A stretch of 64,000 nucleotides of DNA from positions 7,260-71,259 of IMG/VR virus record IMGVR_UViG_3300027740_000183. One strand, written 5' to 3'. The notes under the pieces were generated by a model. The model saw nothing but the letters and a program-made list of their open reading frames with translations, ran no database searches and was not told the origin of the DNA. Below are positions 10,928 through 55,929 of this stretch, in pieces. The position numbers and the translations under genes were made by a program. Origin of the DNA: a virus. Positions within the stretch are counted from its first letter, which is position 1. Each line of letters starts with the position of its first letter.

Positions 10928-11054
10928 TTGTAAAAAGGGATTAAAAGGTATCCCAGCCCCTTATAGACTGGGACATACTATAAACTTTGTTTTTATAATT
11001 TATGTTAAGTTGTAAAGAGATTTAAAGGTATTCCAGTGCCTTACAGATTGGGTA
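10928..11054 (+). repeat. Two tandem leader+CRISPR-like repeat units (repeats at 10939-10974 and 11019-11054)
   Basis: GATTAAAAGGTATCCCAGCCCCTTATAGACTGGGAC and a degenerate copy, each preceded by TTGTAAA; homologous to the array repeat at 46251. Confidence 0.85.
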
Positions 11055-38090: not shown

Positions 38091-38150
38091 TTGTAAAAGA
38101 TACTAAAAGGTATCCCAACACCTTATAGATTGGGACGGACGGACGGACCG
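38091..38150 (+). repeat. Solo CRISPR-like repeat (38101-38136) with TTGTAAAAGA leader and (GGAC)3 tail
   Basis: TACTAAAAGGTATCCCAACACCTTATAGATTGGGAC; last 32 nt identical to the array repeat. Confidence 0.9.
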
Positions 38151-38190: not shown

Positions 38191-38221
38191 AAAAAACCCA
38201 CTCTATTAAAGTGGGTTTTTG
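38191..38221. terminator. Bidirectional terminator between convergent blocks
   Basis: AAAAAACCCAC..GTGGGTTTTT. Confidence 0.7.
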
Positions 38222-45098: not shown

Positions 45099-45218
45099 TT
45101 GTAAAAGAAGACTATAAGGTACTCCAACACCTTATAGATCGGGACCTGACGATTATGAGATCTCATCTGACGATTATCTGACGTATAAAAGGTATCCCAA
45201 CATTTTACAGATCGGGAC
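45099..45218 (+). CRISPR. Mini-array: leader TTGTAAAAGAA, repeat 45110-45145, 37-nt spacer, repeat 45183-45218
   Basis: Two variant 36-nt repeats with CRISPR-like spacing. Confidence 0.7.
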
Positions 45219-45227
45219 TGGAGGAAT

Positions 45228-45605
45228 ATGTTTACATTATCAAAAGTACAAAAACAAGCTTTAGATTCTCTTACTTGGCTGCACTCTTGTAGGGAAGATT
45301 GTGCTAGATCCGGCAGAACTTACGTGCTAGCCCTGCATATACTTCGTACCATCGTAGACAACAACAATGAATGGGTTACTTTAGTAGATCATTACAAGAA
45401 GATAACGGGTACACTTGCTTTACTTCACAGTATTTTTGGCATCGCTAAAGAGCTTGAAATTGATGAATATCTAGAAGTGGTGCGGGGCAGAGATATCGCT
45501 ATACGCTTACTGCCTGCTAAAATCTGTGAAGAAAAATTAAAAGAAATGCGCGATGCTTTATATATATTTAATTGTGAAGAAAAAAATAAGGTTGACGTGA
45601 AATAA
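45228..45605 (+). CDS. Hypothetical protein
   Basis: GGAGG RBS directly after the repeat. Confidence 0.6.
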   Translation: MFTLSKVQKQALDSLTWLHSCREDCARSGRTYVLALHILRTIVDNNNEWVTLVDHYKKITGTLALLHSIFGIAKELEIDEYLEVVRGRDIAIRLLPAKICEEKLKEMRDALYIFNCEEKNKVDVK

Positions 45606-45613
45606 AGGAGGAA

Positions 45614-46030
45614 TTGATTATGAAAAGTGCTAATGATGTTTGGGTGCTGTTAGAAACTATTGAAAATGTAAATTACAATAAAATCAGATCCTTATATGGT
45701 ATTTTTAGAACAAAAAAACAGGCTGTGGAAAAGAAAAAAGACATACTAAAACATAGTATAATAGATCGTTACAGGGGAAATTTTAGAATAAGCAAAGAAT
45801 CTTACGTTTGTTTTACAGGGACTTTTCTTGAAGTAGATCATAGCGAAACTGACACTACTAAAGACTATGTGTGGGCTGTGCTTGAGCCTATTAAAGATTT
45901 TGATAACACAGGATCAGACTACCTTTATTGTGTTTGTAAAAGCAGAAAAGAAGCTAGGAAGATGCAAAAATGGCTAAAAAGTTCAAGTAGTATTCCTTTG
46001 GTGGTTCAAAAAGTGTACTTCATGGAGTAG
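45614..46030 (+). CDS. Hypothetical protein with internal duplication
   Basis: RBS AAGGAGG; VWVLLE...G.F...K.A-like unit occurs twice. Confidence 0.6.
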   Translation: MIMKSANDVWVLLETIENVNYNKIRSLYGIFRTKKQAVEKKKDILKHSIIDRYRGNFRISKESYVCFTGTFLEVDHSETDTTKDYVWAVLEPIKDFDNTGSDYLYCVCKSRKEARKMQKWLKSSSSIPLVVQKVYFME

Positions 46031-46200
46031 TTCATAAAGTATCTCTTACTACTGTGTATTTGTTGCATAGTAAATAATTTGCTGACAATGTGTGAGAATA
46101 CATCCATTTCTTTTTATAAAGAATGGGGGAACTTATACTAGAATTCTTGTGGATTTACATTTTATAAATTTAGTTCCTGGTCATATTCGTACTTACAGTA

Positions 46201-46431
46201 TTACAGATTGGGACGGCTGGGGTCCAGCTATTACCTTGTTTTCTCTCTACGTATAAAAGGTATCCCAACACCTTATAGATTGGGACGGGGTTAAGCGGAT
46301 TCGCTCGATTTTTTCGTACCATTGTATAAAAGGTATCCCAACACCTTATAGATTGGGACTAATCAGCATTGTAACTTGGTCTCCTCTCTTAATATGTATA
46401 AAAGGTATCCCAACACCTTATAGATTGGGAC
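46201..46431. CRISPR. CRISPR array: partial repeat 46201-46214, identical repeats at 46251, 46324 and 46396, spacers 36/37/36 nt
   Basis: GTATAAAAGGTATCCCAACACCTTATAGATTGGGAC x3 with unique spacers; orientation unresolved; no cas gene in window. Confidence 0.85.
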
Positions 46432-46554
46432 GGACGGACGGATGGACGGACCGGCAGAATATCATACGCAGCTACTAAAAATAAAATAGCTCATGGATAT
46501 CATTGGAAATATATAGAATAATATATAAAAAGTACAAAAATAACAAAATTATGC

Positions 46555-46585
46555 AACCACTGTAAGAAAATTACAGTGGTTTTTT
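46555..46585 (+). terminator. Intrinsic terminator downstream of array
   Basis: AACCACTGTAA..TTACAGTGGTTTTTT. Confidence 0.7.
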
Positions 46586-46723: not shown

Positions 46724-47836
46724 ATGACAGATTATAATAGTCCGTATCGTGTAATGGCACACGACCCCTCAATTCCCGCGACATCGATCGACGGAATTCG
46801 TGGCGGGGCTCGCATGGCTAATGGCTCAATTCGTACCTCAAACGGTCCCGCTTTCGGTGCTAATGGCGAACTAAACGCTAGTTCAACTCAAGAACTTATG
46901 CGCGTTATTGGCAAAGTTCTACAAGACGCGCAGCAAACCCGAGTAGTTGCATCTCCAGAAGATGCTTCTATCCGTACCGCACAGCTTCATGACGCAATGG
47001 CAGACAAGAGCGGTGCAAAGTTCCAAGTTCTCGGTGAAGTAATCAGTGAGGATATATGGGAGACCCTTGGAAGAGATGGTTTCTCAAGAAAATTGCTTGC
47101 AGTACAGCCTGTAGCTAACGGTCAAGTCGCTAGAGTCAAAGTTCGCAAAAAGGATGTAGTTGCATACCAAGTTACCAGTGACGTAAAGGTTCAGGAGCAA
47201 AGAATTCGTCAAACATATATTTATCCACCTGAGTTCGTTATCAGCTGCTTACTCATGATTGAGGATAAGGAAATTGCACAGGCTGGTACCGATCTATTGG
47301 ATCAAAAGTATCAGGATGGTCTTGAAGCAATTCTAAGACGGGAAGACTTAATTACCCGCCAACTACTAATTCGTGGTTCCACAACCTTTAACGATTTAGT
47401 TCTATTCCCAACCTTTACACCAGCAGTGCTTAGCACCCTAAAGATCCAGGTTGACCGTTGGGGGAACAGTGCATCAACAATGGTTATTGCATATGATCTA
47501 TGGAATGACATCATTGCTGATACCGATTTCGTACGATTCTGGGATCAGGTTCATAAGCATGAACTAATTCTAGAAGGTCGTCTTGGTTCACTGCTCGGGA
47601 TGGAAATCATCACCGATGGTAACCGTTATCCAACCTTACAGGTTCTTCAACCTGGTGAGGTATTTATAACTGCTAGTCCCGTAACCCTTGGCGCTATTTG
47701 CCAACGCAAAGAGCTTGATTCGAAAGCTTGTGATGGTTACGCACTAGGTCGCGCTGCTCGCGGATGGTTCCTTGAGCAAATTCAAGGTCAAGTCCTTGGC
47801 AACGGTCGCGCAGTATCTCGCGGAGGTCGCATCTAG
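46724..47836 (+). CDS. Major capsid protein (HK97-like fold)
   Basis: 370 aa; own promoter motif, RBS AGGAG and terminator; strong codon bias; G.LG.L.G.EII.D P-domain-like pattern. Confidence 0.75.
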   Translation: MTDYNSPYRVMAHDPSIPATSIDGIRGGARMANGSIRTSNGPAFGANGELNASSTQELMRVIGKVLQDAQQTRVVASPEDASIRTAQLHDAMADKSGAKFQVLGEVISEDIWETLGRDGFSRKLLAVQPVANGQVARVKVRKKDVVAYQVTSDVKVQEQRIRQTYIYPPEFVISCLLMIEDKEIAQAGTDLLDQKYQDGLEAILRREDLITRQLLIRGSTTFNDLVLFPTFTPAVLSTLKIQVDRWGNSASTMVIAYDLWNDIIADTDFVRFWDQVHKHELILEGRLGSLLGMEIITDGNRYPTLQVLQPGEVFITASPVTLGAICQRKELDSKACDGYALGRAARGWFLEQIQGQVLGNGRAVSRGGRI

Positions 47837-49835: not shown

Positions 49836-50209
49836 GTTATTTTTTGTACCAATAAAGAATCCAGCATAGTAATGGAATCAGACACTATTATACCAGGGTA
49901 AGGATTGTAGTTATTAACCACATCGTTAAAACGCGGGTAAGTCTCCGCACAAACCATTCCATCATTAAGTATACAACCTGATGGAAATGTGCCTACCAAG
50001 TTACTAACTGTGTATTCAAAACTAAGCAATGCAGCGTTCCACCCCAATTGTGCAACTATTATACAACTACCTGTTTGGACCCTACAAGTAGGTGCATACA
50101 CGTGTTGAAACGCATAAATAGTTCTACCCACCCCCCATTGGGGTGGAATAGTTAAAAATTTTGGTGTGAACTTATGGGTCATTACGATCTCTGTAGAGAG
50201 AAAGCCCAC
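49832..50209 (-). CDS. Hypothetical protein (annotated start lies within MITE; true start uncertain)
   Basis: ORF track. Confidence 0.4.
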   Translation of the reverse strand: MGFLSTEIVMTHKFTPKFLTIPPQWGVGRTIYAFQHVYAPTCRVQTGSCIIVAQLGWNAALLSFEYTVSNLVGTFPSGCILNDGMVCAETYPRFNDVVNNYNPYPGIIVSDSITMLDSLLVQKIT

Positions 50210-55882: not shown

Positions 55883-55929
55883 GTCCCAATCTGTAAGGTG
55901 TTGGAATACCTTATAGTCTTCTTTTACAA
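55883..55929 (-). repeat. Solo leader+CRISPR-like repeat (repeat 55883-55918)
   Basis: TTGTAAAAGAA GACTATAAGGTATTCCAACACCTTACAGATTGGGAC on minus strand, upstream of PHP gene. Confidence 0.9.

Follow-up and report, generated by a model that had tools for sequence, protein, structure and literature searches.

Organization of the repeat locus

The window analysed here, 64,000 nt in all, comprises bases 7260-71259 of a 137,151-bp IMG/VR virus record (hereafter the contig) from a huge soil phage, for which CheckV gives a completeness of 35%. Because the portal-protein relatives of this phage sit on phage records of 350-420 kb, the record is a piece of a huge phage. The locus of interest lies directly ahead of the major head protein gene and consists of a promoter-like motif, two diverged copies of a 36-nt repeat, two small open reading frames (ORFs) without any family match, a truncated repeat and a mini-array of three identical repeats, the first of which (window:46251-46286) serves as the reference copy (Table 1). 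At least three near-identical repeats of 23-50 nt with unique spacers of similar length make up a CRISPR array, and this is what the mini-array contains. The stretch between the two diverged copies is of spacer length and yet is unlike an acquired spacer, because an 11-nt sequence is present in it twice. The second of these copies ends 9 nt ahead of an ATG that is served by a GGAGG ribosome-binding site.

Table 1. Features of the repeat locus and of the elements discussed with it (window positions unless a contig is named).
Feature	Position	Strand	Remarks
Promoter-like motif TTGTAAAAGAA	45099..45109	+	directly 5' of first repeat copy
Repeat copy, S1 extended to 9 bp	45110..45145	+	S2 weakened by two mismatches and one wobble
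Spacer-like stretch, 37 nt	45146..45182	+	11-nt internal direct repeat, CTGACGATTAT twice
Repeat copy	45183..45218	+	two G.U pairs in S1, A.C mismatch in S2
Two small ORFs, 125 and 138 aa	45228-45605, 45614-46030	+	between repeat copies
Truncated repeat, last 14 nt only	46201-46214	+	in register, 36 nt ahead of next repeat
Mini-array, three identical 36-nt repeats	46251-46286, 46324-46359, 46396-46431	+	unique spacers of 37 and 36 nt
(GGAC)n run	46432..46452	+	continues last array repeat directly
Terminator-like hairpin and T run	46555..46581	+	closes array transcription unit
Major head protein gene	46724-47836	+	phrog_2522, E 1e-54; directly 3' of array terminator
Copy behind motif	10939..10974	+	G18-C30 pair, T11.C20 mismatch
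Degenerate copy	11019..11054	+	ends 10 nt ahead of the ATG of a 500-aa ORF
Solitary copy behind motif	38101..38136	+	intact from position 4; (GGAC)3, then terminator 38192-38220
Solitary copy behind motif	55883..55918	-	leader of PHP-domain gene
Strongly decayed copy behind motif	57780..57815	-	ends 7 nt ahead of ATG
HEARO (IscB-type omega RNA)	58340-58601	-	match at Rfam gathering score
Two TnpB-like paralogues	contig 97003-98466 (L014:9004-10467), 112225-113679 (L015:6226-7680)	-	484 and 487 aa, 87% identical

Beyond the array, the contig carries at least 13 solitary or paired copies of the repeat, with four more in a second phage described below. Those within the window start at 45110, 45183, 10939, 11019 and 38101 on the plus strand and at 55883 and 57780 on the minus strand, and six further copies, all on the minus strand, lie elsewhere on the contig. 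A (GGAC)n run continues the 3' end of the repeat in five copies from the two phages (window 46432-46452 and 38137-38149; contig 79658-79665 (-); L031:7383; L032:4116) and is absent elsewhere in the contig; GGACGGAC is likewise found solely after repeat copies. At contig 107790-107800 (-) the stretch GATTGGGCA, which resembles the 3' end of the repeat, abuts the intact copy 107754 on its upstream side with no spacer between them, and is possibly the remnant of a lost unit. Elsewhere in the window, 43-nt hairpin-bearing repeats related to the HEARO match occur at 50182, 54308, 57898 and 58551.

The repeat follows a promoter-like motif and leads into genes

The 9-mer TTGTAAAAG occurs 26 times in the contig against approximately three occurrences expected. 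It stands 2-4 nt upstream of 12 of the 16 solitary or first copies of the repeat, usually behind an A run, and is also placed about 10 nt ahead of the start codons of both TnpB-like genes. This excess, together with the position before the TnpB-like starts, suggests that the 9-mer acts as a phage promoter-like motif, and we regard it as a candidate phage-specific promoter. Its occurrences behind an A run are spread over the whole contig (e.g. window 34166, 44843 and 52909 (-), 81962 (-), 120582), and some of them stand before genes that have no repeat. A scan for sigma-70 promoters gave no excess over shuffled sequences.

Every copy is oriented in the sense of its downstream gene, and a reading of the unit as a promoter or terminator on the reverse strand was dropped since the orientation always follows that gene. 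Twelve of 15 copies end 7-55 nt upstream of a start codon, and a ribosome-binding site often lies in the gap; the genes behind them include those for ClpX, a PHP-domain protein and the 500-aa ORF of the virion block. As most solitary copies stand at this distance from a start codon, the repeat would form the 5' end of messenger RNAs. Two copies, 38101 and L032:2003-2038, are followed on their 3' side by a terminator-like hairpin (in the latter read by eye) and look like small-RNA genes. The lone copies are thus intergenic repeats with a promoter-like motif just upstream and no cas gene nearby, which is the make-up of the solitary repeat units known from viruses. Taken as a whole, the element combines a CRISPR mini-array carried by a phage with solitary repeat units, and belongs to a known kind that is here unusually multiplied and embedded in gene leaders.

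Searches for homologues, hosts, cas genes and protospacers

One metagenome scan found the repeat in two contigs of the same sample (L031 and L032, the second phage), as four solitary copies. The second phage has the same unit of motif plus repeat at 90-98% identity, and the flanks of L031 and L032 have almost no DNA similarity to the phage studied here. A diverged copy at L032:2722-2757 (+) lacks the upstream motif and lies 10 nt ahead of an ATG; in it, the place of S2, the second of the two helices described below, is taken by a distinct 4-bp G+C hairpin that pairs positions 19-22 with 28-31. A third pattern match from the same scan (L030) was rejected as a chance match. The repeat was found neither in IMG/VR or GenBank phages nor in eight related huge-phage records reached via the portal protein, and two scans of one genome per species, 185,579 species in all, yielded no host array with this repeat; six loci from the species-genome scan proved to be chance matches, among them a coding repeat and a 22-nt tandem repeat. 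Rfam CRISPR-DR families gave no match at gathering score in the window and none at E up to 10 on 46240-46440, and the literature held nothing relevant on the repeat or its tag.

Pfam and PADLOC scans of the large ORFs and array neighbours detected no cas genes on the 137 kb, and six-frame searches of the same 137 kb, which cover 35% of the genome, detected no Cas6 or RAMP families. Protospacers were found neither in the contig or the fetched relatives nor by exact 22-mers in IMG/VR, exact matching being a weak test. The contig's only kin of Cas12 are the two TnpB-like paralogues, whose best solved relative is CasPhi-3 (over the zinc-ribbon/RuvC-III part) and which have more than 400 relatives at approximately 50% identity, often in several copies per 200-600 kb phage record. 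We fetched 28 viral loci of this family and found over the 3' end of the gene a conserved omega-RNA-like stretch ending in ACGGT just past the stop codon, with no arrays and no match to the repeat model in any of the 28. The TnpB-like genes were therefore rejected as effectors of the repeat: the omega-RNA-like 3' region and the lack of arrays among their relatives argue that these proteins are unrelated to it, and the family appears to be an ordinary, omega-RNA guided one.

The consensus repeat can form two interleaved helices

An earlier note on this DNA had described interleaved complementary segments in the repeat and had assigned them to an H-type pseudoknot. The segments are real: AAGGT (positions 7-11) is complementary to ACCTT (20-24), forming helix S1, and TCCCAA (13-18) to TTGGGA (30-35), forming helix S2, with A12, C19 and ATAGA (25-29) as the linkers and hence loops of 1, 1 and 5 nt. 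Judged by established rules for pseudoknot loop lengths, the geometry is also correct, as 1 nt crosses the 6-bp S2, a 1-nt junction separates the helices and 5 nt cross the 5-bp S1. The repeat accordingly has what defines an H-type fold, namely two interleaved helices with sterically allowed loops. At least 11 perfect interleaved pairs arise in 0.07% of mononucleotide and 0.6% of dinucleotide shuffles.

We estimated the stability of the knot with a crude H-type energy built from ViennaRNA Turner stacking, terminal A-U penalties, an initiation term of 9.6 kcal/mol, 0.1 per loop nucleotide and steric rules. The consensus reaches -8.0 kcal/mol as a pseudoknot versus -6.5 kcal/mol for the nested optimum, and none of 1000 dinucleotide shuffles reached -8.0 (mean -0.7, sd 1.2); the margin of 1.5 kcal/mol in favour of the knot is within the error of so rough a model and not decisive. 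The ordinary nested fold of the consensus is unremarkable (z = -0.6) and has S2 as its optimum, S1 alone being weak (-3.8 kcal/mol), and the nested fold of the array transcript has no dominant helix, with pair probabilities of 0.1-0.6 for S1 and 0.03-0.35 for S2 that do not discriminate. In copy 45110 the 9-bp S1 gives a minimum free energy (MFE) of -11.6 kcal/mol (z = -3.7).

The knot-forming potential of the intact repeat is statistically unusual. Given the correct geometry and this unusual double complementarity, a pseudoknot or a two-state fold is still a credible interpretation, and for the intact copies a pseudoknot is plausible, if unproven. S2 is probably not incidental, because a perfect 6-bp helix is unlikely by chance and because one of its pairs, 18:30, covaries.

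Copies of the repeat largely retain S1 and often lose S2

The earlier note had gone on to argue that the variants mostly preserve pairing and that selection acts on the RNA structure, either a pseudoknot or a two-state switch, and had proposed covariation among homologues as the check. Our alignment for this purpose (A3) holds 20 copies, 17 of them distinct, from two phages; the copies are not independent and the power to detect covariation is low. All of the variants that had been quoted are present, namely G18/C30 in 10939, ATTTT in 45183, G20 in 11019, T14 in 55883 (-) and the 9-bp S1 of 45110. Several changes that break pairs had been left out, namely A20>C in 10939, T31>C in both 45183 and 45110, and T35 in 11019. 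That variants mostly preserve pairing is numerically true, and it amounts to no more than neutral change in a well-conserved sequence would give: 90.4% of the cells are paired versus 89.3 +/- 0.8% when the 3' partners are shuffled, and 76 of 500 shuffles are as high.

Only the pair 18:30 covaries (A-U in 7, G-C in 6, G-U in 2 and unpaired in 2 sequences), with a Fisher p of ~0.05 on copies that are not independent. Among the 20 copies there is no independent compensatory change in S1, where pair 9:22 becomes A-U just once, in the heavily decayed copy 57780. Unique single-sided changes in the stems keep pairing in 9 cases, always as G.U, and break it in 13; for transitions the counts are 9 and 6, against a neutral null of 50% (p = 0.30). 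Because the differences between copies are mostly transitions, half of which give G.U, they represent decay rather than compensatory evolution.

The two helices fare differently. Paired cells make up 96.5% of S1 and 85.3% of S2, and of the 20 copies 16 have, by energy, kept S1 and 10 have kept S2. S2 is intact at all five loci of array or small-RNA type versus 5 of 15 of leader type. Copies 11019 and contig 106580 carry changes at positions 18-19 that let S1 grow to 7 bp by taking in positions 13 and 18; S2, and with it the knot, is thereby excluded in both. The number of variants per position is 0.6 in the 5' strand of S1, 0 at A12, 1.6 in both the 3' strand of S1 and the linker 25-29, and 3.0-3.2 in the strands of S2; no copy varies at T4 or A27, the pair that extends S1, and G28 and A29 are nearly invariant. 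What the copies conserve, in other words, is S1 with its surroundings, and S2 is left to decay. With 17 distinct sequences, pairing no better than in shuffles, a single covarying pair, and S2 broken in half of the copies, selection on both stems finds no support in the variation. The sequence observation behind the earlier note is real, and the evolutionary argument for a knot fails.

A conserved hairpin and a class-1-like tag as the proposed working part

We favour, at a probability of roughly 40%, a reading in which the conserved working part of the repeat is S1 together with a class-1-like 8-nt tag, and rank it first, ahead of a true knot. The tag AUUGGGAC matches the class-1 tag AUUGAAAC, which derives from 37-nt type I-B repeats (PMC3479195), at 6 of 8 positions, and the S1 hairpin, when extended by U4-A27, ends 1 base ahead of the expected cut between G28 and A29. 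Transcription would start from the promoter-like motif TTGTAAAAG abutting the repeat and run in the sense of the neighbouring genes. S1 would then be the hairpin at which a repeat-binding RNase of the Cas6 kind docks and cuts, an enzyme that could come from the host or from the missing part of the phage genome, and cleavage between G28 and A29 would leave the tag AUUGGGAC on the product. S2 would pair the loop of S1 with the tag, by which the intact repeat may be brought into a compact H-type pseudoknot or some alternative fold. Since no cas gene, host array or Rfam match was found, the class-1 assignment is putative and left to the tag resemblance and the lengths of repeat and spacers alone.

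If the intact repeat were a true H-type pseudoknot, with the 5 bp of S1 and the 6 bp of S2 formed together as a handle recognised by an effector, its topology would be that of the Cas12a handle on a larger scale, where the loop of a 3' hairpin pairs with the flank on the hairpin's 5' side. The crude energy (-8.0 versus -6.5 kcal/mol, reached by none of 1000 dinucleotide shuffles), the rarity of 11 interleaved base pairs, the retention of both helices in all intact copies and the covarying pair 18:30 all speak for such a fold, as do the facts that type V guide RNAs are pseudoknotted as a rule (PMC12141684, PMC10200996) and that the S2 hairpin stops 1 nt short of the spacer, as in Cas12a. However, the overall covariation is not significant and in S1 is confined to a single, heavily decayed copy, 10 of the 20 copies have a broken S2 while S1 persists, 11019 and contig 106580 fold S1 into positions 13 and 18 of S2, the 1.5 kcal/mol margin lies within the error of the model and the effector is only hypothetical, so that we consider this fold rather unlikely. 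The S1-plus-tag reading and the true knot are not fully exclusive, and intact repeats may well knot while leader copies need only S1. The opposite simplification, in which S2 alone is a 3'-terminal hairpin beside the spacer in the style of a type V or VI-A handle and S1 is incidental or an alternative fold of the precursor, draws on S2 being the nested MFE of the consensus and the site of the only covarying pair, and on the fact that huge phages often carry type V effectors. It is difficult to reconcile with the solitary copies, which conserve S2 least of all their parts and keep S1, T4-A27 and the linker 25-29 better, and with the contig's only RuvC proteins belonging to the omega-RNA-guided TnpB family, unrelated to the repeat; we regard it as improbable.

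Two further readings assign the fold a lesser part. Conservation that is stronger near the promoter could reflect constraints on DNA rather than on RNA, and AAGGT-N8-ACCTT downstream of the motif might accordingly be an operator or part of the promoter, with the rest of the repeat a decaying passenger. The fall in conservation with distance from the motif fits this, as does an S1 that has G.U-type and mismatch changes and lacks true compensation, and the motif also appears to drive genes without a repeat. The array of three identical 36-nt repeats and its unique spacers of 36-37 nt, the strict sense orientation and the terminator-bearing units that resemble small-RNA genes are nevertheless left unexplained, and this is to our mind the least probable of the readings considered. 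Somewhat doubtful, and the best placed of the alternatives, is that the solitary copies are RNA anti-CRISPR decoys which mimic a host repeat and titrate away the Cas6 and effector subunits of the host, in which case structure matters only as a copy of the host repeat. The units fit published viral solitary repeat units, with an upstream promoter and no cas genes, and the small ORFs between copies recall racr-acr loci (PMC10651486). Against this, the host repeat was not found in 185,579 species genomes, and at least 13 copies per 137 kb, mostly in gene leaders, are far beyond the described cases. The decoy reading is compatible with, and not exclusive of, the preferred explanation by S1 plus tag.

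Comparison with known systems

The solitary copies are closest to the Racr and solitary units of Camara-Wilpert et al. 2023, which are single intergenic viral repeats that often follow a promoter directly and have no cas genes, some with adjoining small ORFs (PMC10651486). Unlike these, the units described here, known from sequence, number at least 13 in 137 kb and stand mostly in the 5' leaders of ordinary genes (ClpX, PHP-domain, virion-block), and a matching host repeat was not found in the 185,579 species genomes. The array itself resembles cas-less virus-borne mini-arrays in its three identical repeats, its regular unique spacers, the upstream motif and the downstream terminator; it differs from them in having no protospacer match in the searches above, two protein genes between the first two copies and the array, and degenerate repeats on the promoter side.

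With Cas6-cut class-1 repeats the element shares a 36-37-nt repeat length, spacers of approximately 36 nt, the tag AUUGGGAC with its 6 of 8 matching positions and an S1 that ends 1 nt ahead of the expected cut; the Cas6-processed 8-nt 5' tag of Pyrococcus, for comparison, is AUUGAAAG (PMC4436667). In contrast to such repeats, no cas6 or other class-1 gene was found on the 137 kb, and the tag here is complementary to the loop of S1 (as S2), which is not known as a feature of class-1 repeats.

Among classical H-type pseudoknots, the frameshift knots of retroviruses have stems of 5-6 bp. The stem and loop lengths of the repeat are in the range allowed for H-type knots, and its helices could stack coaxially across a 1-nt junction; in contrast to the classical knots, covariation support is absent and the context is a CRISPR repeat, not a recoding site. 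The Cas12a knot consists of a 5-bp stem plus single tertiary pairs, and the Cas12a hairpin ends 1 nt ahead of the spacer. Here a full 5-bp second helix would form instead, the repeat has no sequence likeness to a Cas12a-type repeat, and no cas12a gene was found on the 137 kb. The likeness to the 5' handle of the Cas12a crRNA is one of layout, the 3' hairpin ending 1 nt ahead of the spacer and its 5' flank pairing with the hairpin loop (PMC10200996). The earlier note had set the repeat apart from the single hairpin of most CRISPR repeats, which overstates the contrast, since a pseudoknot is the fold of the Cas12a repeat (PMC10200996) and has been called conserved in most Cas12 guide RNAs (PMC12141684).

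Implications for the phage

The most far-reaching possibility is that the intact repeat is a genuine 5+6-bp H-type knot, a protein handle which, whole or as its S1 core, has been placed at the 5' end of at least a dozen mRNAs behind one type of promoter, such that CRISPR repeat recognition has been recruited phage-wide for RNA processing or regulation, beyond immunity or decoy. We consider this quite unlikely. If the knot is true, it would be the first full two-helix H-type pseudoknot in a CRISPR repeat, and the architecture of the repeat would link to the pseudoknotted guides of type V systems. Whatever the fold, the placement of one repeat family and one promoter type before many genes, common to two otherwise dissimilar phages, suggests a use in gene expression or the mass production of decoys.
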